This document shows, one piece after another, positions 5,454 to 46,248 of a stretch of DNA of 64,000 nt. The stretch is taken from contig CAWFFH010000004.1 of the NCBI GenBank assembly GCA_963815095.1, positions 32,001 through 96,000 on the forward strand. The letters run 5' to 3'. Within the stretch, counting starts at the first letter, position 1, and the number at the start of each line of letters is the position of its first letter. The stretch comes from Candidatus Bathyarchaeota archaeon (GTDB taxonomy: Archaea; Thermoproteota; Bathyarchaeia; Bathyarchaeales; Bathycorpusculaceae). Both the position numbers and the translations under genes were made by a program. The notes under the pieces were generated by a model. It saw nothing but the letters and a program-made list of their open reading frames with translations. It was not told the origin of the DNA and ran no database searches.

Positions 5454-7349
5454 TTGGCTGAACTTTTGGAGTTGGATAATTTGTACGAACATCTTGAAGA
5501 GAGAGCCATCGATTACAAATATCGAGATATCGCCAACCTTTTCCAAAAAATACGCGATAAAAAGCATGTGGCGAAAAAGCCTGATTTAGAGGCAATAGCT
5601 CAATGGGAAATGAATGTTTTCAATTTCTCCGTTGCCCAAAATGTTGTTAGTCCATCTTGGACTTTTCCTGACTCGGAAGGAAAACTGGTGAGCCACCCAA
5701 CATACGATGATTTTGTTCCTACATCATATGATTATATTATCAGAAGACTCGAATCAACAAACAACCCGATGCTCAAGGCAAGATACGCTCATGTATTGTG
5801 GTTTAGCCCTAAGAAACACGGCAAATACGCACTTTTAGCAGCAGATAAGTATCTTGAACTAATTAAGTTCTACGAACAGAAAGACAAAGAAAATCCGCAA
5901 AAATACTTTGGTTTCGATGTCTTAACTGCTGTAGAAAACGCTATTCTCATTTCAAGAAATATTAATGATACGACCAGAACAGACTTAGCAAAATCGGAAG
6001 TGAAACGTCTGATTTTCAATTTCAATGCAGAAAGCACTTGTTTGTTCAGGGTTCGCTCAGATTTGTTTGGATTAATGATAAGGGAGAAAACGATATTTTC
6101 AAAAGATGATTTTACTGGCATTGGAGAACTATGCTTCAACTTTTCTAAATCATTGGGAGATCCGCATCAAGCGATCTCTATTCTGAAACTTGGCAAAATG
6201 GTTGAAGAAAAAGCAGGAATAACCATCTACAACTGGGACGAATTGATTGCGGAATCATATGAAAAAATGATGAACGCGAACCTACAAAATAACAAACATG
6301 TTGCCATTGAATTTTGTGGCAAAGCGTTAGAGTATTACCAGCTTGCAAAAAATGAAAAGAAAAGCGAAAAACTAGAAGCTATTTACACAGAATTAAGCGG
6401 AAGCCTTGAATTCCCAAAAATTGAGGTTGAGATTGACCTTAAAGAATACATCGTTGACTGTGAAGAAAAAGTAACAAAATTGATGAAGTTTACATCTGAA
6501 CAAATAATTGGCTTCATTATGACGGATAAAAACTTGCTACCCGATTATACCGTGACAAAAGAGTTAACACAGAAAATCTTAAAACAGTTTCAGATGCAAG
6601 CTATTCTTCCAATAACTCTTACCGATGAGCAGGGACATACCGCTCAATGCTTCACAACAACACAAGAAATTGAAGTCTATCATACACTTCATCAATATCA
6701 TATGATTCTTGAGAACTATTGTTTGCGCTTTCTAAATATGGTATTCATTGAAGGATTGAAAGAGAACAAAATAACATATGAAGCGCTTATGGAATTTTTT
6801 CAAAAGTACAGCTGGTTCGGCAAAACTATTCCTAAAAAAAGATTCAATAAAGAGGTTCCAGACAATTGGTTAAGCTTGTTAGCGCCATCATTGTTTGAAT
6901 ATTTCGCTCAAATGGATTATTGGAGGGTTTCGGGAAATTATCCAAACTTAGTCTTGTGCATCGATTCATTGGTATTAAAGATTGAAGGATTACTTAGAGA
7001 AATGTTCTTTTTCAATGGTATAGCCACTTTTACTTCAAAGGCAGACAAGAAACATGGAAAGAGAATTACTTATGAAAAGGAATTAAATGCTCTTTTGAAC
7101 GAGAAAAGAATAAGCGAGTTGTTTGACCCTGATGACCTTTTGTTGTTCAAATTTGTACTCATAGAAAAAACAGGATACAATTTAAGGCATAAGATAGCGC
7201 ATTCCTTGATGCGTAGTGTTGAATATCAAATTCACTACATGCATCTCTTGATACTCATACTGCTGAAACTCAGCAGTTACAATCTAACAATAACGAGAAA
7301 AACTGAATCTAAAGAAAAATGTGAGTCAAAACCGAGTGAATCTAATTGA
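5454..7349 (+). CDS. DUF4209-like protein with C-terminal HEPN-type RxxxxH motif (putative defence moron)
   Basis: 631 aa, AT-rich, own promoter (AAAAACTTAAAG ~5403). LVLKIEGLLR...GYNLRHKIAHSLM matches DUF4209/HEPN motifs. Confidence 0.7.
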   Translation: MAELLELDNLYEHLEERAIDYKYRDIANLFQKIRDKKHVAKKPDLEAIAQWEMNVFNFSVAQNVVSPSWTFPDSEGKLVSHPTYDDFVPTSYDYIIRRLESTNNPMLKARYAHVLWFSPKKHGKYALLAADKYLELIKFYEQKDKENPQKYFGFDVLTAVENAILISRNINDTTRTDLAKSEVKRLIFNFNAESTCLFRVRSDLFGLMIREKTIFSKDDFTGIGELCFNFSKSLGDPHQAISILKLGKMVEEKAGITIYNWDELIAESYEKMMNANLQNNKHVAIEFCGKALEYYQLAKNEKKSEKLEAIYTELSGSLEFPKIEVEIDLKEYIVDCEEKVTKLMKFTSEQIIGFIMTDKNLLPDYTVTKELTQKILKQFQMQAILPITLTDEQGHTAQCFTTTQEIEVYHTLHQYHMILENYCLRFLNMVFIEGLKENKITYEALMEFFQKYSWFGKTIPKKRFNKEVPDNWLSLLAPSLFEYFAQMDYWRVSGNYPNLVLCIDSLVLKIEGLLREMFFFNGIATFTSKADKKHGKRITYEKELNALLNEKRISELFDPDDLLLFKFVLIEKTGYNLRHKIAHSLMRSVEYQIHYMHLLILILLKLSSYNLTITRKTESKEKCESKPSESN

Positions 7350-7852
7350 ACGATTTAATCTTCAAATGCAAAAAATGCGGTACTTGCTGCCGAGGTCTTT
7401 TTGTCGAAGAATTTGGCATGTTGCAGGGATTGTGCTTAACTGAAGAAGAGACGAAAGAGTTTGACTCAAAATTCATTATGCCTTACATCGCTATTGGTTA
7501 TAAGGAACCAACAACCATCGTATATTATCAGCTTATCCTTGCGGATTGCCCACATCTAAATGAGAAAAATGAATGCAAAATTTATGAAAAAAGACCCCTA
7601 ATTTGTAGAGTGTTCCCTATTCACCCTGATATTAATCATACCGTAATTCTACCGAAATGCCCTCAAATTGAAAAGCATTGGAGCCGAGAAGGGGAAATTT
7701 GCCCTGTAGCTATTGAGGATGATGAGATAGAAGGCGCTTTAACGAGGTTGAACATCCGTTCCCTAACTCACAGGAAAGAATGTTTAGAGAAGGGTTTGCA
7801 TTTCTGGTATTTTGATTTGGCGACGAAAAAATGGAATTCATCAAATAAATGA
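7346..7852 (+). CDS. YkgJ-family CxxCxxCC cysteine-cluster protein
   Basis: CKKCGTCC...CPHL...CKIYEKRPLICRVFP. Confidence 0.85.
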   Translation: MNDLIFKCKKCGTCCRGLFVEEFGMLQGLCLTEEETKEFDSKFIMPYIAIGYKEPTTIVYYQLILADCPHLNEKNECKIYEKRPLICRVFPIHPDINHTVILPKCPQIEKHWSREGEICPVAIEDDEIEGALTRLNIRSLTHRKECLEKGLHFWYFDLATKKWNSSNK

Positions 7853-9063: not shown

Positions 9064-9080
9064 TACTGTAATTTACAGTA
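9064..9080. promoter_or_regulatory. 17-bp palindromic operator (distal) TACTGTAA-T-TTACAGTA
   Basis: Perfect palindrome matching the three sites at 9803-9951; abuts TATA-like TTATAAG 9082-9088. Confidence 0.75.
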
Positions 9081-9149: not shown

Positions 9150-9305
9150 TTGATTGTGGAAAGCGACTATAAGTGCAAGAAATGCGGTTTTACGTTCCCC
9201 AAAGAAGGCGCCAACATCAGCGGCGGAGAGAGCTATCTCTACGGGTTCCATGTGCACTGCCCAAAATGCGAAGCAGTTGTAGAGCAGTTTGTTAAGCCTA
9301 ATTAA
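9150..9305 (+). CDS. 51-aa zinc-ribbon protein (below ORF track cutoff)
   Basis: TTG start after GGAG; MIVESDYKCKKCGF...HVHCPKCEAVVEQFVKPN*. Confidence 0.65.
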   Translation: MIVESDYKCKKCGFTFPKEGANISGGESYLYGFHVHCPKCEAVVEQFVKPN

Positions 9306-9517: not shown

Positions 9518-9646
9518 TTGCACGACAATAACGAAGTTGAGCTTGAAATCACCGAGGATTTATACAATAAAATTGAGGATTGCGCAAAATCTAAGGGTTT
9601 AAGTGTTGATGATTTCCTTTCATCTGTTCTTCGACCACCTGGTTGA
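9518..9646 (+). CDS. 42-aa RHH-like protein (below ORF track cutoff)
   Basis: MHDNNEVELEITEDLYNKIEDCAKSKGLSVDDFLSSVLRPPG*: strand-helix-G-x-S-helix RHH pattern. Confidence 0.55.
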   Translation: MHDNNEVELEITEDLYNKIEDCAKSKGLSVDDFLSSVLRPPG

Positions 9647-9785
9647 GTTGATAGGTGACGTAACCGGTGAAACTGTTGATGCCTTTTTTTATTAGCCATT
9701 CTTTTTGGGCTTTTTTATACTGGTTCATAAAATAATCGTAGACGTCTTTTTTGACAGTTATGCTCATGTAGCCTTTTTCAGGCAA
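9591..9785 (-). CDS. RHH-like regulator, leftward member of switch (putative repressor)
   Basis: MPEKGYMSITVKKDVYDYF...KGINSFTGYVTYQL; divergent from 9982 gene. Confidence 0.7.
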   Translation of the reverse strand: MPEKGYMSITVKKDVYDYFMNQYKKAQKEWLIKKGINSFTGYVTYQLNQVVEEQMKGNHQHLNP

Positions 9786-9802: not shown

Positions 9803-9819
9803 TACCGTAATTTACTATA
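9803..9819. promoter_or_regulatory. Operator TACCGTAA-T-TTACTATA
   Basis: Matches consensus TACYGTAA-N-TTACRGTA; overlaps expected start of leftward transcript (minus-strand TTTAAATA at 9839-9846). Confidence 0.7.
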
Positions 9820-9880
9820 TAGAAATTTACGTTTAGAGTATTTAAAGAATATTACTTTTTTCTCAAGATATCACGCTCAC

Positions 9881-9897
9881 TACTGTAAGTTACGGTA
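9881..9897. promoter_or_regulatory. Operator TACTGTAA-G-TTACGGTA
   Basis: Near-perfect palindrome directly upstream of rightward TATA CTTATAAA 9901-9908 (BRE position). Confidence 0.75.
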
Positions 9898-9934
9898 AAC
9901 CTTATAAAGAAAACTCTCCCAATTAGCAAATAAC

Positions 9935-9951
9935 TACCGTAACTTAAGGTA
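9935..9951. promoter_or_regulatory. Operator TACCGTAA-C-TTAAGGTA
   Basis: One mismatch from palindrome; at expected rightward transcription start. Confidence 0.75.
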
Positions 9952-9981: not shown

Positions 9982-10164
9982 ATGCCTGTGGAAGGTTTCA
10001 AAACTATAACGGTCAGCCAAGAAGTCTATGATAAAATAGAAAACTTTGCTGAAAAAACACATCGCAGCGTTCCCAAGGCAGTTGAGTTTCTTATGGAAAA
10101 AGCGGATGTAGCCCGTAGACGACAAGAAAAACGAAACGCCCAGGAGAGTCGGACTAACGGTTAA
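9982..10164 (+). CDS. RHH-like regulator, rightward member of switch (putative Cro-like)
   Basis: MPVEGFKTITVSQEVYDKIENFAEKTHRSVPKAVEFLM; GAGGT RBS; first gene of the operon ending in the integrase. Confidence 0.75.
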   Translation: MPVEGFKTITVSQEVYDKIENFAEKTHRSVPKAVEFLMEKADVARRRQEKRNAQESRTNG

Positions 10165-10295: not shown

Positions 10296-10484
10296 ATGGA
10301 AAAAACCGCTGTTATAGAAGAGAGTAAGGGGTTTTCTCAGCTTTTAGATAGGGTTTGGTGCCCTATTTGTGGCGGAGAATTAGAAGTCAAGAAAATCGAT
10401 GGTAAGCGTATTCTAAATTGTACCAGGGATGGAGCGATGAAGGCTTACCTTGACAAAGACCCAAAAGTTGGAAGTGAGAGTTGA
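10296..10484 (+). CDS. Small Zn-finger-like viral protein
   Basis: CPICGG...C motif, operon-coupled. Confidence 0.55.
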   Translation: MEKTAVIEESKGFSQLLDRVWCPICGGELEVKKIDGKRILNCTRDGAMKAYLDKDPKVGSES

Positions 10485-11513: not shown

Positions 11514-13405
11514 TGGCTAGTGAGGAGGGAAAAGTTGGCTTGCATTCTAAGAGCTTTCGCCCACGCAAAGCCGGTGAGGATAGTTGCAAGTCAGTTACTA
11601 CCATAACTGCCGGCGCCAGCTCCCAAATCCTCAAATCTGTTTATGTCAGGTATAGAGACCACGCCTTTTTCAGGAATGTTCAGTCACCCGTAGTTGAAGC
11701 GGTAATTCGGGAAGCGTTGGGCTGGGTTAAAAAAGAGAATGATGAGGTTATGCTTATCGAGTGTGATAGACCTCTTCTGGAGGGCTTCAGTGGCTTTAAT
11801 GGTGTGGTTATTCTTAAAAACTGCATCGTTTCCATGGTTGAGTTGCCGCTGGACCGTTTTTCAAGTGGAACTTTAAATTGTTCGGCTGTTAAAGAGAGAG
11901 TGAGTACTGCGCTTCTAGCCAAAAGAAGCGAAAAACTCACCCCTAAAAACAAGCGGAAGGGGCAAGAATTGATAGAGCGAAAAACGCAACCTATAGTAAT
12001 AGAGCGAAAACGTAACCTCACCGTTGATGACCTAAAAAAACTCAATCTGCCACTGCAATTCCAAGGCAAATTCGTCATTATCGAGAAAACCTTGAACAAC
12101 ATACGACTGCAAAATCCTCTTAGCTTAGAGCTCAGCAAAATCTTAGCAACCGGAGAAACAGGACTCGTAGACTACATCATACGCAGCTGCCTCAACAAGT
12201 ACCCCAACATTATTCCCTACATCTTTGAACATCAAAGCATGGTAAGGATGTCCCGGCACTTTCTACGTTACTGCTGCGGTTCTCTTGAGAGCTGTCCCAC
12301 ATATGCACTGCGATTCAAAAAATATGCTGACTGGCTCGGATACAGCCCTGATTTAATCATCCAAGATGTCAAACCTGTTGGCGCAATTCCCGATCCCCTA
12401 AAAGTGCAAAACCACTGTGGATTCTTAAGCGACTACTTAGCCGCCCTACAAGACAGCGATCTTAAGCCAGGCGCAGTCTGCAACTACATTAAAACAGTCA
12501 AAACCTTCTATCGCACCAATGGAGTAAAAAAAATTGAACTAGACGAACCCTTGAGCCGAAAAGTATCTCACAAAGACAGAGCACCCAAACCCGAGGAACT
12601 CTCGGTAATGCTAGATAAAGCCGCTACCCGTGAAAGCTTTGTCATCGCAGGCGTTGCAACAGGAGGCTTCAGAGAAGGCACCTTTTCCAAACTGAAATAC
12701 CGCCACGTCAAAGAAGACTTAGAAGCCGGACGCGTACCCATCCACATCCATATCGAAGCCAGCATTACCAAGGGTAAATACCACGATTATGATACATTCC
12801 TGAACGCTGAAGCCAGTCATTTCCTCAGATTATACATAGAGGAAAGAAGACAAGGCACCGATGGAATGCCGCCAGAAACAATTACCGACGAATCGCCACT
12901 GGTAAGAAACAGCCACGTCGCAAACAGAGTCTTAGCCGTCAGCGAAAAAACCATCCGAAAAATCGTCCATGACTCCGCTGTCGAAGCAAAGGTCGCAAAA
13001 AAACTACCTAACAGCTGGATGTATAGCGTTAGAACCCATAGCTTAAGAAAATTCTTCAGAACCCAATTAAGCGCGGCAAAAATCGACGACGAAATCATCA
13101 AGTACATGATGGGAAAAACAATCGATACCTACGAAGATGTTCAGAGCTTGGGCATTGAAACCCTTAGAAACCTATATTCAGCCGCAGGATTAGCCATCAG
13201 AGCGAAAACCAAAGTAAACCGCATTGATCAACTCAAAGAAATCATACGCGGCTGGGGAGAAAACCCCGAGGAAATTCTCGCCAAAGATATCTTGATACGT
13301 AGCAATCAGACGGTCGAAACAGACGAACAGATTCAGAACCATCAGTTATCCGTTCTAGCAACCGAACTTAAGCAGATTATCCGCAAGGAGGTTACGGAAA
13401 AATAA
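11513..13405 (+). CDS. int: Tyrosine recombinase/integrase with ~150-aa in-frame N-terminal extension (likely starts: ATG 11513 and TTG 11969)
   Basis: GFREGT (R), TKGK (K), HSLRKFF (HxxR), YMMGK...DTY (Y); adjacent to att. Confidence 0.9.
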   Translation: MASEEGKVGLHSKSFRPRKAGEDSCKSVTTITAGASSQILKSVYVRYRDHAFFRNVQSPVVEAVIREALGWVKKENDEVMLIECDRPLLEGFSGFNGVVILKNCIVSMVELPLDRFSSGTLNCSAVKERVSTALLAKRSEKLTPKNKRKGQELIERKTQPIVIERKRNLTVDDLKKLNLPLQFQGKFVIIEKTLNNIRLQNPLSLELSKILATGETGLVDYIIRSCLNKYPNIIPYIFEHQSMVRMSRHFLRYCCGSLESCPTYALRFKKYADWLGYSPDLIIQDVKPVGAIPDPLKVQNHCGFLSDYLAALQDSDLKPGAVCNYIKTVKTFYRTNGVKKIELDEPLSRKVSHKDRAPKPEELSVMLDKAATRESFVIAGVATGGFREGTFSKLKYRHVKEDLEAGRVPIHIHIEASITKGKYHDYDTFLNAEASHFLRLYIEERRQGTDGMPPETITDESPLVRNSHVANRVLAVSEKTIRKIVHDSAVEAKVAKKLPNSWMYSVRTHSLRKFFRTQLSAAKIDDEIIKYMMGKTIDTYEDVQSLGIETLRNLYSAAGLAIRAKTKVNRIDQLKEIIRGWGENPEEILAKDILIRSNQTVETDEQIQNHQLSVLATELKQIIRKEVTEK

Positions 13406-13535: not shown

Positions 13536-13638
13536 TCAATTTTCTTCTCACTTGTTATTGCGTTTTGAAGTCACATACAGTAAATAATCAGGTCCCCGTC
13601 TTTTATTTTGAGTTTTTGTTGGATGCAATCTCAGGTTT

Positions 13639-21852: not shown

Positions 21853-21930
21853 TGGCGCCCAGGCCGGGATTCGGACCCGGGTCCTACGGGCGACAGCCGT
21901 ACATACTAGACCGAACTATACTACCTGGGC
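21853..21930 (-). tRNA. tRNA-Asp(GTC), CCA encoded, no intron
   Basis: Acceptor GCCCAGG/CCTGGGC, anticodon arm TACGG-CTGTCGC-CCGTA, T-arm CCGGG-TCCGAAT-CCCGG. Confidence 0.95.
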
Positions 21931-44100: not shown

Positions 44101-44481
44101 ATGCGCTGCTCAAACTGTGGAGTATGCTGCACAGAAACCGAAATGCTGCTCTCCAAAAAAGACATTAAACGCTTAGAAAAGAAGGGTTTTAGCCAAAACC
44201 AATTCGTAAACTACGATGAGCAAGGCTACGCAGTGCTAAAAAATCGTGATGGTCACTGTGTCTTCTATGACCTTAAAAATCGTCAGTGCAGCGTTTACGT
44301 GGACCGACCCGCAGGATGCAGAGTTTATCCAGTGATTGTTCATGAAGAAAAGGGAATAATTTTAGATAATATTTGTCAATCAAGAAAGTCGATAACTCAA
44401 TTGGAGAAAAATTTTAAAGGGAAACGGGTAATTAAGTTACTTGAAGAGATTGATGCTGAAGCATTAGAAAGGCGTTCTTGA
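44101..44481 (+). CDS. YkgJ-family cysteine-cluster protein
   Basis: CSNCGVCC...CVF...CSVYVDRPAGCRVYP. Confidence 0.85.
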   Translation: MRCSNCGVCCTETEMLLSKKDIKRLEKKGFSQNQFVNYDEQGYAVLKNRDGHCVFYDLKNRQCSVYVDRPAGCRVYPVIVHEEKGIILDNICQSRKSITQLEKNFKGKRVIKLLEEIDAEALERRS

Positions 44482-44488
44482 AAGTTTC

Positions 44489-44668
44489 TTATGATCTGTG
44501 GTTTGTAGCGTTTGCTTGTTTGCATTGCCAACATGCTACAATTGTGTGTTTTTGAGCGTCCACGTCATTATTTGGTACCATGCTTGTTCTTACAAGGTTG
44601 CCACAGTAGTCGCAAATGAGTTGTATTTCGGCAACGCGTTCATTGTTTTGAAGAACTTTGATGGGCAA
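44489..44668 (-). CDS. 59-aa zinc-ribbon protein (below ORF track cutoff)
   Basis: MPIKVLQ...ICDYCGN...ACWQCKQ; follows the RHH gene by 4 bp. Confidence 0.6.
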   Translation of the reverse strand: MPIKVLQNNERVAEIQLICDYCGNLVRTSMVPNNDVDAQKHTIVACWQCKQANATNHRS

Positions 44669-44672
44669 AAAT

Positions 44673-44819
44673 TTACTTTCCTGATTTGGTGGCTTTTTCG
44701 TTTGCCATTAGGTACTCGATGTATTCTTTTATTGTGCGGTTTGTTTCTTTTGCTTTTCTTCTGATGTCTTCATGGAGTTTATCGGTAACAGTTATGCATT
44801 TGTATCCTTTTCGTGGCAA
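44673..44819 (-). CDS. 48-aa RHH-like protein, homologue of proviral 9982-10164
   Basis: MPRKGYKCITVTDKLHEDIRRKAKETNRTIKEYIEYLM; 14/38 identical ungapped; GAGGAG RBS. Confidence 0.7.
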   Translation of the reverse strand: MPRKGYKCITVTDKLHEDIRRKAKETNRTIKEYIEYLMANEKATKSGK

Positions 44820-44861
44820 AAAATATCTCCTCATGTCCTTTTTCTTTGGTGACGGATATTA

Positions 44862-44878
44862 AGCCGTACTTTACGGTA
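44862..44878. promoter_or_regulatory. Operator-like AGCCGTAC-T-TTACGGTA
   Basis: 13/16 match to the proviral operator consensus; lies between the two RHH genes. Confidence 0.55.
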
Positions 44879-44998
44879 CTTAACCATTCTATAAATATAT
44901 AATTAGCGGTGAGTTAGCGATGTATTGTTGCTACTGTTATTTTGTCAAACTTTAAATAAATGTACGTTCGGTAACTATGATTTAGAGAGGGAACCTGA

Positions 44999-45181
44999 AC
45001 GCCGAAGAAAGGCTATAAAAGCATCACTGTGAAGACCGAGGTTTACGATTACTTTTTTAATGAATGGCTCAAAGTCAAAGATGAATACGCAATAAAAAAG
45101 GGCATACATAGCTTCTCAGCCTATATCACTTACCTTTTGGCTCAGCTGATAAATGAAGACAAAAAATCTTCCAAAGAATAA
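44999..45181 (+). CDS. 60-aa RHH-like protein, homologue of proviral 9591-9785; begins with ACG
   Basis: (T)PKKGYKSITVKTEVYDYFFNEW...KKGIHSFSAYITYLL; 30/53 identical ungapped; in-frame TGA directly upstream. Confidence 0.7.
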   Translation, partial: TPKKGYKSITVKTEVYDYFFNEWLKVKDEYAIKKGIHSFSAYITYLLAQLINEDKKSSKE

Positions 45182-45243
45182 ACCCCAGAAAATCCCTACA
45201 ACTTTAAATAAGCCTTGAACTGACTTAGCAAAGGTGAAAAGTT

Positions 45244-46248
45244 ATGTCTTGCTCAGTAATTGTTGGCGCCTTCTGGGGAGACGAAGGCAAAGGAAAAATA
45301 ATCTCGTACTTAGCACTAAAAGATAACCTTGATTTCTGTGTTAGAACTGGCTCAGTTAATGCTGCCCATACGGTTTGGTTTGAAGGCAAAAAATATGCGT
45401 TACACATGGTGCCTGCTGCGTTTATAAATCCCAAAACGCGTTTGCTGATTGCTGCAGGTGCAAACGTTGATGTTAAAACATTTTTTGATGAAATGGCGCT
45501 TACCCAAGTCGACGCAAAACGGATGGGCATAGATCAGAACGCTTCCATAATTGAGCAGAAACATTGTGAACAAGACAAGGCGAGTGCTGTTAACAAGGGC
45601 ATTGGAACTACAGGCAGGGGTGTTGGACCTGCGTTGGAGGAGCGGGTTAGGCGCACGGCTAAACTTGCCAAAGATATTCCTGAACTCAAACCCTATCTTG
45701 CCGATGAAATAGGTGAAGTTAATGATGGGTTGGATGCTGGCAAAAGTGTGCTTCTTGAAGGTACTCAAGGCTTTATGTTGTCGCTTTTCTTAGGCGGCGG
45801 CTACCCTTACGTGACTGGACGAGACACAGGTGCATCTGCTATTGCCTCTGAAGCTGGTGTTGGACCAACAAGAGTTGACGACGTCATCATAGTTTACAAG
45901 TCCTTCATGACCCGTGTTGGTGCTGGACCTTTACCCGGCGAAATAACCAAGGAAGAAGCTCTGAAGCGAGGTTGGTTTGAGGTTGCTGCTGGAACAGGCC
46001 GCGACCGACGCAGCGCACCATTTGACTTTGACTTAGCCAAGAAAACTGCAAAAATAAACGGCGCCACCCAAGCTGCTATGACAAAACTCGATTGCATTTA
46101 TCCAAGCTGTAAAGGTGCCCGAAAATACAATGACCTACCCAAAGAGGCAAAGGATTTCATAAAAGAAGCAGAAACCCGAACCGGTGTCCCCATTGTCTTC
46201 ATCGGAACAGGACCAGATGCCCTCGACCTAATAGACCGCAGGCCATAG
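45244..46248 (+). CDS. purA: Adenylosuccinate synthetase (short archaeal type)
   Basis: WGDEGKGK, GTTGRGVGP, EGTQG, TRVGAGP. Confidence 0.95.
   Translation: MSCSVIVGAFWGDEGKGKIISYLALKDNLDFCVRTGSVNAAHTVWFEGKKYALHMVPAAFINPKTRLLIAAGANVDVKTFFDEMALTQVDAKRMGIDQNASIIEQKHCEQDKASAVNKGIGTTGRGVGPALEERVRRTAKLAKDIPELKPYLADEIGEVNDGLDAGKSVLLEGTQGFMLSLFLGGGYPYVTGRDTGASAIASEAGVGPTRVDDVIIVYKSFMTRVGAGPLPGEITKEEALKRGWFEVAAGTGRDRRSAPFDFDLAKKTAKINGATQAAMTKLDCIYPSCKGARKYNDLPKEAKDFIKEAETRTGVPIVFIGTGPDALDLIDRRP

Follow-up and report, generated by a model that had tools for sequence, protein, structure and literature searches.

The window examined here is a stretch of 64,000 nucleotides from a Candidatus Bathyarchaeota archaeon (GenBank assembly GCA_963815095.1, contig CAWFFH010000004.1, positions 32,001 to 96,000 of the forward strand). 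It contains a cassette of three small genes, situated between a YkgJ-like gene and purA and about 35 kb from an integrated virus: L and R, a divergent pair predicted to encode ribbon-helix-helix (RHH) proteins, and a Zn-ribbon gene behind R. That this is a real regulator cassette maintained by selection is close to certain. The evidence leans, by a modest degree, towards the whole chain of a domesticated viral switch, including predicted cross-talk with the provirus. The most unexpected result is the conserved, probable ACG start codon of L.

Conservation of the cassette and its viral relatives

A preliminary description of the window had proposed the three genes and had placed them among housekeeping genes, away from viral ones. 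All three open reading frames (ORFs) are present, and the flanks are annotated as housekeeping genes only, comprising an M20 peptidase, a YfcE phosphodiesterase, the YkgJ-like protein, purA, and an HtrA-type protease; no viral genes occur in them. Within the genus, L was found in 16 of 24 other genomes, and it was found in 0 of 16 genomes from 11 other families of the order. When 300 genomes of the family were sampled and searched with a single protein as the query, L appeared in 64 of 88 genomes of one genus, in 16 of 26 of another, and in none of the 186 genomes of the 68 other genera, which places cassettes in 2 of 70 genera. In this sample a genome holds at most four copies, and several copies are visibly broken.

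Of the 113 loci collected, 10 were dropped, namely three without L (L021-L023), three of the virus type (L030-L032), and four duplicates (L006, L017, L018, and L019, which repeat L033, L028, L024, and L027, respectively). Four of the remaining 103 were not parsed for the start codon (L014, L029, L078, and L107), and the other 99 are referred to below as the parsed loci. The ORFs are intact in all 99, and the order p96-YkgJ-Zn-R-L-purA-HtrA is kept in 65, 12 of them from the second genus. Consequently, the cassette is not strain-specific, since the survey and the synteny check find it at the same YkgJ/purA junction in both genera. Pairwise Nei-Gojobori comparison of syntenic copies gave dN/dS ratios of 0.11 for L (from codon 2 onward), 0.21 for R, and 0.27 for the Zn-ribbon gene, next to 0.13 for YkgJ and 0.055 for purA; with dS at about 1.2-1.5, these ratios are rough.

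The history of the insertion can be followed at the purA site itself. Among eight purA loci from genus genomes without an L match, six are empty sites at which YkgJ runs directly into the purA promoter, one also lacks YkgJ, and one (L022, genome G014) is decayed, with frameshifted remnants of all three cassette genes. On the purA tree, a single-gene proxy for the species tree, the seven cassette-free loci are scattered, and at least six changes are needed, three of which are forced by well-supported branches. The simplest reading of these sequences would be one old insertion before the split of the two genera, followed by repeated loss. A natural stage of decay at the purA site is provided by L014 (genome G019), in which a stop stands at codon 4 of L (T-P-K-stop). 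Two database homologues that are 78-85% identical to L (P0011 and P0066) bear the source label of Chloroflexi or Candidatus Limnocylindrales metagenome-assembled genomes (MAGs), whereas others are labelled Bathyarchaeia; the former labels are probably binning or labelling errors in public MAGs.

The provirus forms the left 13.4 kb of the window and has PHROG matches to a minor tail protein, a Neck1/tail-completion protein, and an integrase. Its leftward and rightward regulators had been described as relatives of L and R, and this is borne out by tblastn searches of the 2.69-Mb genome with nine small proteins as queries. Host L and viral L share 52.5% identity over 59 amino acids (E 6e-18) and are each other's sole significant partners in the genome, while host R and viral R share 37% over 43 amino acids (E 4e-5). 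Taken as a whole, the resemblance described earlier is confirmed and greatly exceeds what chance would give. Two further parallels drawn between the loci hold only in part. A Zn-ribbon gene does follow R at both, but the two Zn-ribbon proteins lack sequence similarity, with no match at E <= 10 in the same genome. A YkgJ-like gene is likewise present at both, but this is a weak coincidence: the host and viral proteins are 26% identical (E 2e-4), the host protein has five further CxxCxxCC-type matches in the genome at E < 1e-3, and a protein other than the viral one is its closest paralogue. With better paralogues elsewhere and the gene staying in place where the cassette is absent, YkgJ was rejected as a member of the module.

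Switches of the same kind are carried by other viruses. In genome G011 (L030), the virus-type L, R, and integrase are 84%, 93%, and 60% identical to those of the window's provirus; terminase-like and integrase-like genes, read by eye, lie near the virus-type pair of G004 (L032), and related proviruses with such pairs are found in G002 (L031) and G289 (L118). A class-wide profile search of 401 genomes found the family in 8 of 131 genera. Flanks were annotated for four of the eight loci from other families; L129, L132, and L133 stand beside portal and/or major-head genes, and L130 has an integrase and a ParB-like gene alongside. In two of four R ORFs (L129 and L132; family f24, genus g119) R is fused to a C-terminal CxxC...CxxC Zn-ribbon, which ties the separate Zn-ribbon gene of the cassette functionally to R. 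Other fusions, also read by eye, join the L-type RHH domain to a CheY-like receiver domain in L136 (family f34) and to a Cys/His-rich domain in L135 (family f33).

The preliminary description had offered, as one of two options, that the host captured a viral repressor module. Viral L sequences, four in number, are set apart on a long branch of their own (SH-aLRT 100), and in a midpoint-rooted tree the distant L sequences of viruses and mobile elements fall outside the chromosomal copies. The monophyly of 28 chromosomal copies, a random choice from the chromosomal rows, is not rejected (p-AU 0.675). The distribution and the tree thus favour, without proving, a viral switch captured in the common ancestor of both genera, the host-clade tree being compatible with one origin. 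Three points weigh against capture. The L trees are based on about 60 columns, with most forks unresolved and with midpoint roots, so that the direction of capture rests mainly on the distribution and a midpoint root would also allow the opposite direction. The genomic context is annotated at only four of the eight distant loci. Finally, one distant L, which carries a receiver domain, has the appearance of a cellular regulator.

The start codon of L

In the window genome (G000), the L frame begins with an ACG right behind a TGA stop. The first canonical codon is the GTG at codon 11, and a start at this position would remove the predicted DNA-reading strand. Because no ATG, GTG, or TTG stands at the start of L, the ORF list gives only a truncated L of 50 amino acids from the GTG at 45029, and the non-canonical start was overlooked in the preliminary description. 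Across the parsed loci, codon 1 is ACG in 82 cases, ATG in 13, GCG in 2, and TTG and CTG in 1 each, and none of the 99 has ACA, ACC, or ACT. The invariant threonine at codon 10 is encoded by ACT in 70 loci, ACA in 11, ACG in 10, and ACC in 8, and ACG is the rarest threonine codon genome-wide (11.8%). In 67 of the 82 ACG loci there is no in-frame ATG, GTG, or TTG between the nearest upstream stop and the ACG, the stop being adjacent in 6. A Shine-Dalgarno (SD)-like motif lies 6-11 nt ahead of codon 1 in 94 of the 99 loci, and the 3' end of the 16S rRNA reads GGATCACCTCCT, ending in CCTCCT. Diverged members of the family with ACG at the same position include the provirus copy L032, the paralogues at the S12 site described below, and L119, and those with other starts use GTG (L030, L117), ATG (L031, L118), or TTG (the window's provirus).

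Among the 120 best database homologues of L, 36 begin with M-P-K-K-G-Y, whereas 67 show a T before the P after N-terminal extensions of 1-39 residues. These extensions can be read as translated SD, operator, and TATA DNA, as in the case of M-Y-V-R, which would derive from the conserved ATGTACGT. The sequence features expected of a near-cognate start are found here: a canonical start is missing, the position behind the SD is fixed, and the codon is conserved at the nucleotide level. L is very probably initiated at ACG by mismatch pairing, which should keep the protein scarce. A search for a special initiator tRNA with a CGU anticodon returned only tRNA-Thr(CGU), by its look an ordinary elongator.

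Some observations weigh against initiation at ACG. The genome encodes an ordinary initiator tRNA (CAU), to which ACG is readable by mismatch only; a canonical start lies upstream in frame at 15 of the 82 ACG loci; and the GCG found at two loci is not near-cognate. These two loci, L061 (G305) and L110 (G255), have an otherwise intact L with a first codon two bases off AUG, and they are either freshly silenced copies or a sign that initiation tolerates still more mismatch. An alternative, judged improbable, is that L does not begin at ACG because of C-to-U editing at 45000 to give AUG, the use of other start codons, or a lack of translation. C-to-U editing that creates AUG occurs in plant organelles. 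The 15 loci with an upstream start fit this alternative, as do the GTG at codon 11 in the window genome and the place of ACG outside the start codons of NCBI table 11. However, the upstream extensions are of unequal length and in different frames, and what they translate is promoter, operator, and SD DNA, while GTG is found at codon 11 in only 25 of 99 loci and would cost the protein its beta-strand. Moreover, the third base of codon 1 is invariably G, whereas synonymous sites elsewhere vary freely. As to an untranslated L, the dN/dS of 0.11 from codon 2 on implies that the protein is made.

The literature searched, with supplementary tables outside its scope, contained no described archaeal ACG start codon and no RHH switch of Bathyarchaeia; in the main text of PMC10848311 the terms RHH, ribbon, and repressor are absent. 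A ribosome profiling study of Haloferax volcanii reports that about 30% of its putative alternative start sites are near-cognate and sets them aside without analysis (PMC7261190). If true, the present case would be the first conserved archaeal ACG start codon described, and it would mean that archaea can fix a near-cognate start as a regulatory device. It also exposes a systematic annotation error, with 67 of the 120 best L homologues apparently over-extended and the gene missed or truncated in the window genome.

Fold, control region, and layout of the cassette

Modelling and profile comparison place both L and R among the RHH proteins by fold, outside any curated sequence family. The L-family and R-family profiles align with an hhalign value of 97.6% (E 2.9e-12), with a 9-residue insertion in L relative to R. 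The AF2 model of L, obtained from a 33-row alignment, has a pLDDT of 93.6 and consists of an extended segment (residues 1-12) and two helices (13-34 and 39-59), which is the RHH layout of an N-terminal strand and two helices. When L was compared with 48,161 chains by VIA-align, the top rows were nearly all RHH proteins, the best with a Z of 6.7 and an rmsd of 1.8 over 51 residues. The matches include ParB of pCXC100 (Z 6.7), TacA (TacA1), TraM, NikR, and PutA and, lower down, SvtR of SIRV1 (Z 4.5), Arc (Z 4.1), and ORF56 of pRN1 (Z 3.9); since all Z values are below 8, the weight rests on the consistency of the list. Foldseek of L against the PDB gave nothing at E <= 0.001, the best TM-scores belonging to RHH proteins. 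Sequence-based searches were negative as well. L has no Pfam family, and R stays below threshold with ParD_like (20.5 bits, cut-off 23) and RHH_5 (13.3 bits, cut-off 26), as does viral R with RHH_5 (22.6 bits, cut-off 26). NCBIfam matches neither L nor R, the best hit of a PDB sequence profile search was unrelated (E 0.19), and PADLOC returned 0 families at E <= 0.01 for the eight proteins tested.

In the modelled strand of L, I9 and V11 face the core and Y6, S8, T10, and K12 point outward. The four outward residues are identical in host and viral L, the sole difference in the strand being the core-facing K7/M7, whereas three of the four outward positions differ between the R strands. This pattern points to L, rather than R, as the likelier reader of the heptad TACNGTA described below, and it predicts cross-recognition of host and viral operators.

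The intergenic region between R and L had been reported to contain an operator-like site that matches the viral consensus at 13 of 16 positions. The site is indeed found at 44862-44878, where AGCCGTACTTTACGGTA agrees with the consensus TACYGTAANTTACRGTA at 13 of 16 positions. The genome has 32 positions with a score of at least 13/16 (4 in the provirus, the O1 site itself, and 27 elsewhere), and the chance of such a site within a 165-bp stretch is about 0.002. The pattern CYGTAMNTTACRG, a 13-mer widened with the host site in view, occurs three times genome-wide, twice in the provirus and once at the cassette, and GTACGTTCGGTWAC of the O3 site has just two genome occurrences. Of the half sites noted earlier, TTCGGTA at 44967 is conserved in orthologues, but TACTGTTA at 44932 is not, lying in a variable stretch.

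For the comparison of orthologous control regions, a MAFFT alignment of 20 loci was relied on, as the ungapped upstream consensus is blurred by indels. The conserved blocks are CCGTACTTTACRGTAC beside the R start, which is nearly invariant, the A/T-rich ATATATAATTAACGGT, CTTAWATAAA followed by TGTACGTTCGSTWAC, and GAGGG before L. The operator-like site is therefore conserved in orthologous loci, a point on which the preliminary description had made its reading depend. The 7-bp palindrome TACNGTA occurs 423 times in the genome (0.157 per kb) and 62 times in 64 cassette intergenic regions that total 8.87 kb (6.99 per kb), a 44-fold enrichment, with at least one copy in 56 of the 64. The viral control region has four within 196 bp, and another viral pair lies 10 bp apart at 9064/9074; heptads spaced by 10 bp would fit a dimer-of-dimers arrangement. 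In distant relatives from another family, GTACNGTAC stands directly upstream of both genes. The distance between R and L is 119-183 bp in 62 of the 67 loci in which R was found, and the two divergent, predicted DNA-binding genes share an intergenic region that bears operator-like sites. The assignment of the TATA boxes follows archaeal promoter architecture; a scan for bacterial-type promoters and terminators was uninformative for an archaeon. On this assignment, both operator-like blocks would lie between a TATA box and a coding start, one for R and one for L, where any protein bound to them would hinder initiation. Two facts weigh against a close correspondence of host and viral operators. 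The host control region contains only one perfect heptad, with a partner 10 bp off that matches at 4/6, whereas the viral heptads are paired, and among the 99 cassette intergenic regions only 39 contain the 13-mer CYGTAMNTTACRG in full.

Two types of rearranged control region were also observed. In L033 (G015, purA site) and L047 (G315), an insert of about 650 bp without any ORF above 52 amino acids separates the R and L promoter blocks, giving intergenic regions of 791 and 763 bp with R and L intact; this insert may be a small non-coding mobile element. In L024 (G015) and L061 (G305), the block AATTGAATATATAATTAACGGTGAA, which comprises the R promoter and a half-site, is repeated two to three times in a tandem-like manner, and the control region measures 228-238 bp. 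The coordinates of the cassette, its control elements, its neighbours, and its proviral counterpart are collected in Table 1.

Table 1. Features of the chromosomal cassette and of the proviral switch (positions in the window).
Feature	Position	Strand	Remarks
YkgJ-like CxxCxxCC gene	44101..44481	+	Left flank of the insertion point, outside the cassette; Pfam PF03692, 57.1 bits
Zn-ribbon gene	44489..44668	-	59 aa, TTG start; same direction as R, 4 nt downstream
R, minimal RHH protein (predicted)	44673..44819	-	48 aa from TTG 44819
Operator-like O1, AGCCGTAC-T-TTACGGTAC	44862..44879	.	Perfect heptad TACGGTA at 44872-44878; expected transcript start of R
A/T-rich TATA-box-like element for R, block ATATATAATTAACGGT	44888..44901	-	Conserved in the 20-locus alignment
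TATA-box-like element for L, TTTAAATAA	44951..44959	+	CTTAAATAA or CTTATATAA in orthologues; putative promoter role
Conserved O3, TGTACGTTCGGTAAC	44961..44975	.	Between the L TATA box and the SD-like motif
SD-like GAGGG	44987..44991	+	7 nt ahead of the ACG
In-frame stop TGA (44996-44998), then proposed ACG initiation codon (44999-45001)	44996..45001	+	
L, RHH protein with long helices (predicted)	44999..45181	+	60 aa; paralogue of R, homologue of the leftward regulator of the provirus
purA TATA-like element	45202-45211		Belongs to purA itself
purA (adenylosuccinate synthetase)	45244..46248	+	NCBIfam NF003295, 450.7 bits (cut-off 368); outside the cassette
Viral L	9591..9785	-	64 aa, TTG start
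Viral divergent control region	9803..9951		17-mers at 9803, 9881, 9935; TACNGTA at 9803, 9881, 9891, 9935
Viral R	9982..10164	+	60 aa, ATG start; viral Zn-ribbon gene next, integrase further right
Viral Zn-ribbon gene	10296-10484		Downstream of viral R

L and purA point in the same direction and are separated by 62 nt. The start of R at TTG 44819, as given in the preliminary description, is the most likely one; of the 67 loci in which R was found by pattern, 61 share this TTG, one "R" (L089) in that search being a false match. The upstream ATG at 44834, present in the window genome only, is probably not the start of R. In the Zn-ribbon protein, C19, C22, C46, and C49 (CxxC...CxxC) are invariant in an alignment of 31 orthologues, and its Pfam matches are sub-threshold only (Zn_ribbon_3). 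A complex prediction for two R and one Zn-ribbon protein, with alignments as input, gave a score of 0.00 and a mark of 0.32, which is neutral on binding. Metatranscriptome contigs of depth 2 and 100% identity cover 44373-44523 and 44663-44813, that is, the end of YkgJ, the Zn-ribbon gene, and most of R, although the libraries may contain DNA; one further contig comes from a relative and one lies within purA. L and the intergenic region are without such cover, which is neutral. No run contained half of the sampled words, and the four examined contained small shares of them; X6 and X7 returned the same results, so that these two may represent a single data set, and the same may hold for X8 and X9. 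An Rfam scan of the whole window found tRNA-Asp at 21856-21930 alone.

Contrary to the single-copy view of the preliminary description, the cassette is one of a small group of paralogues that occupy at least four conserved sites on the chromosome, and about 34 parsed loci lie away from purA. One of these further sites adjoins a flavin-reductase-like gene, a PAS protein, and a glucan phosphorylase, another adjoins glyoxalase-like and Rieske-like genes, and a third, occupied by a more diverged group with about 50% identity to host L, adjoins the genes of ribosomal proteins S12 and S7; except for the glucan phosphorylase, which matches an ORF of the window, these names come from reading the ORFs by eye. 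What the sites have in common at the DNA level is a stretch of about 460 bp that runs from R across the intergenic region to L, in some cases together with the Zn-ribbon gene, at 78-88% identity, and many copies give no Zn-ribbon match when the window genome's protein is used as the query. The flanks of these additional copies show no match to any protein of the window's provirus. Against the chromosomal status of all copies stand a transposase-like gene beside L024 and an integrase-like gene 4 kb from L025 (both ORFs read by eye), and some of the "chromosomal" extra copies may lie in unrecognised mobile DNA.

Further observations concern the provirus. A 631-aa ORF (5454-7349) without a PHROG match is followed by the viral YkgJ-like gene (7346-7852), an unusual cargo for a tailed virus. 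At 9064-9080, 70 bp upstream of a second small proviral Zn-ribbon ORF (9150-9305), there is a perfect 17-bp palindrome, TACTGTAATTTACAGTA, and the G004 provirus (L032) has a 102-aa ORF with a similar C-terminal Zn-ribbon. Two copies of TACNGTA, at 13576 and 13758, are located to the right of the integrase gene, which ends at 13405, near the likely right end of the provirus.

Competing explanations and known systems

As a domesticated viral switch, the cassette would be a working three-gene regulatory unit composed of divergent RHH paralogues, a Zn-ribbon protein behind R, and conserved operator-like elements over both core promoters, one of which is built on TACNGTA. The switch family is one carried by head-tailed (pro)viruses and integrated elements of Bathyarchaeia. 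Most likely, one lineage was captured by the chromosome before the two genera split and was then fixed at the YkgJ/purA junction; the captured cassette would have been copied to at least three other sites and, while under purifying selection, repeatedly lost. L and R would repress their own or each other's promoters by occupying the transcription start region. The level of L would be kept low by the near-cognate ACG behind a good Shine-Dalgarno sequence, with TTG serving R and the Zn-ribbon gene. As host and viral L share the same four DNA-facing residues and the same heptad, host L is predicted to occupy proviral operators and viral L those of the host, resulting in immunity or cross-talk.

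The main rival, itself unlikely, is an ordinary cellular RHH pair without present viral interplay, its likeness to the proviral switch reflecting old ancestry. What insulates the two systems would then be the bases around the operators, the R proteins, or the amounts of protein. Identities of just 52.5% for L and 37% for R between host and virus are in keeping with such insulation, and so are the separate long branch of viral L (SH-aLRT 100) and a host operator that is 3/16 off the viral consensus and has one perfect heptad. The cassette also occurs in many genomes in which the same query finds no virus-type L, a single match being found in 11 of the 17 matching genomes of the genus. In contrast, host and viral L agree in every predicted DNA-facing residue, the heptad is common to the whole family, distant viral members included, and the repeated loss, multiple copies, and decay of the cassette amount to the behaviour of an accessory element.

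A bolder form of the domesticated switch, doubtful at present, is that the chromosomal cassettes are immunity switches in which scarce host L silences resident or incoming head-tailed viruses through TACNGTA. Since initiation at ACG depends on the stringency of start-codon selection, the amount of L would follow the translation state of the host and would link induction to physiology.

It is quite improbable that the cassette is a selfish or addiction element similar to type II toxin-antitoxin systems, with an RHH antitoxin-repressor and the Zn-ribbon protein as a harmful partner. Antitoxins of the RHH type (TacA, ParD, Rv0298, CopA-SO) account for many of the nearest structural neighbours of L, R has a sub-threshold ParD_like match, and the short copied unit is patchy and present in up to four copies per genome. 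However, no toxin family is recognised in the Zn-ribbon protein (Pfam sub-threshold, PADLOC and NCBIfam none), its match is missing at many cassette copies with the window-genome query, and R and the Zn-ribbon form one polypeptide in relatives, which is unlikely for a toxin and its antitoxin. A divergent RHH pair also fits a switch and not a toxin-antitoxin operon. A dedicated regulator of purA or purine metabolism, with L placed 62 nt upstream of purA, is very improbable. The adjacency of L and purA in 65 of 99 parsed loci would agree with it, as would the failure to see an oligo-T stretch from the L stop to purA, but purA has a TATA-like element of its own and directly follows YkgJ in six cassette-free genomes, paralogous cassettes adjoin unrelated genes, and there is no TACNGTA between L and purA. 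Finally, a decaying, strain-specific prophage scar, suggested by the likeness to the proviral control region and by decayed copies in a few genomes (G014, the premature stop of L014, and several stop-bearing matches), is refuted by the shared site in two genera, the intact ORFs in 99 of 99 loci, flanks without viral genes, and dN/dS ratios of 0.11-0.27 in place of the value near 1 that the preliminary description had named as the mark of a scar.

The significance of the proposed domesticated viral switch lies in several areas. The cassette bears on lysogeny control in Bathyarchaeia, an abundant uncultured group whose viruses are known from sequence alone. A viral control module long kept (in two genera) and multiplied by its host would be raw material for immunity or for new host regulation. 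A test of the switch would be cheap, since all of its parts can be made by synthesis: four proteins, each 48-64 residues long, and a few 17-bp sites.

Compared with known RHH factors (Arc/MetJ/CopG), including SvtR of SIRV1 and ORF56 of pRN1, the cassette proteins have the same predicted strand and two helices, the same small size, and repeated short palindromic promoter sites. L differs in having no match among Pfam, NCBIfam, or PDB profiles, a first helix of 22 residues, and the 9-residue insertion relative to R. Type II RHH antitoxins (ParD, TacA, CopA-SO) share the fold, the small genes, and the multi-copy, patchy distribution, whereas the cassette has no toxin partner, two divergent RHH genes, and a fusion of R with the Zn-ribbon in relatives.

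Divergent two-repressor switches control lysis and lysogeny in phage lambda (CI/Cro) and in archaeal viruses (F55 of SSV1 and ORF4 of SNJ1). They resemble the present system in the divergent pair of small DNA-binding proteins (here predicted), the short region between them, and the repeated operators; as in lambda-type switches, proviral R leads into the rightward genes and the integrase, and proviral L stands alone. In contrast to these switches, both proteins here are RHH paralogues and the chromosomal copy controls no viral genes; location inside a viral genome and control of it apply to the proviral homologue at 9.6-10.5 kb and not to the chromosomal cassette. Bacterial cryptic prophages retain repressors that give superinfection immunity. 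Like these, the cassette retains the control region of a virus whose other parts are absent, evolves under purifying selection, and varies in presence as an accessory element. Unlike them, it is fixed at one site in two genera, is copied as a unit of about 460 bp, and has no flanking viral remnant or attachment site.

In Escherichia coli, the AUU start codon of infC acts as a throttle. The L gene resembles such genes with non-canonical starts, among them infC and the Haloferax sites, in placing a near-cognate codon behind a normal Shine-Dalgarno sequence in a presumably dose-sensitive regulator. It differs from them in that ACG lies outside NCBI table 11 and is nevertheless kept in 82 of 99 loci, in two genera, in diverged paralogues, and in one provirus copy.

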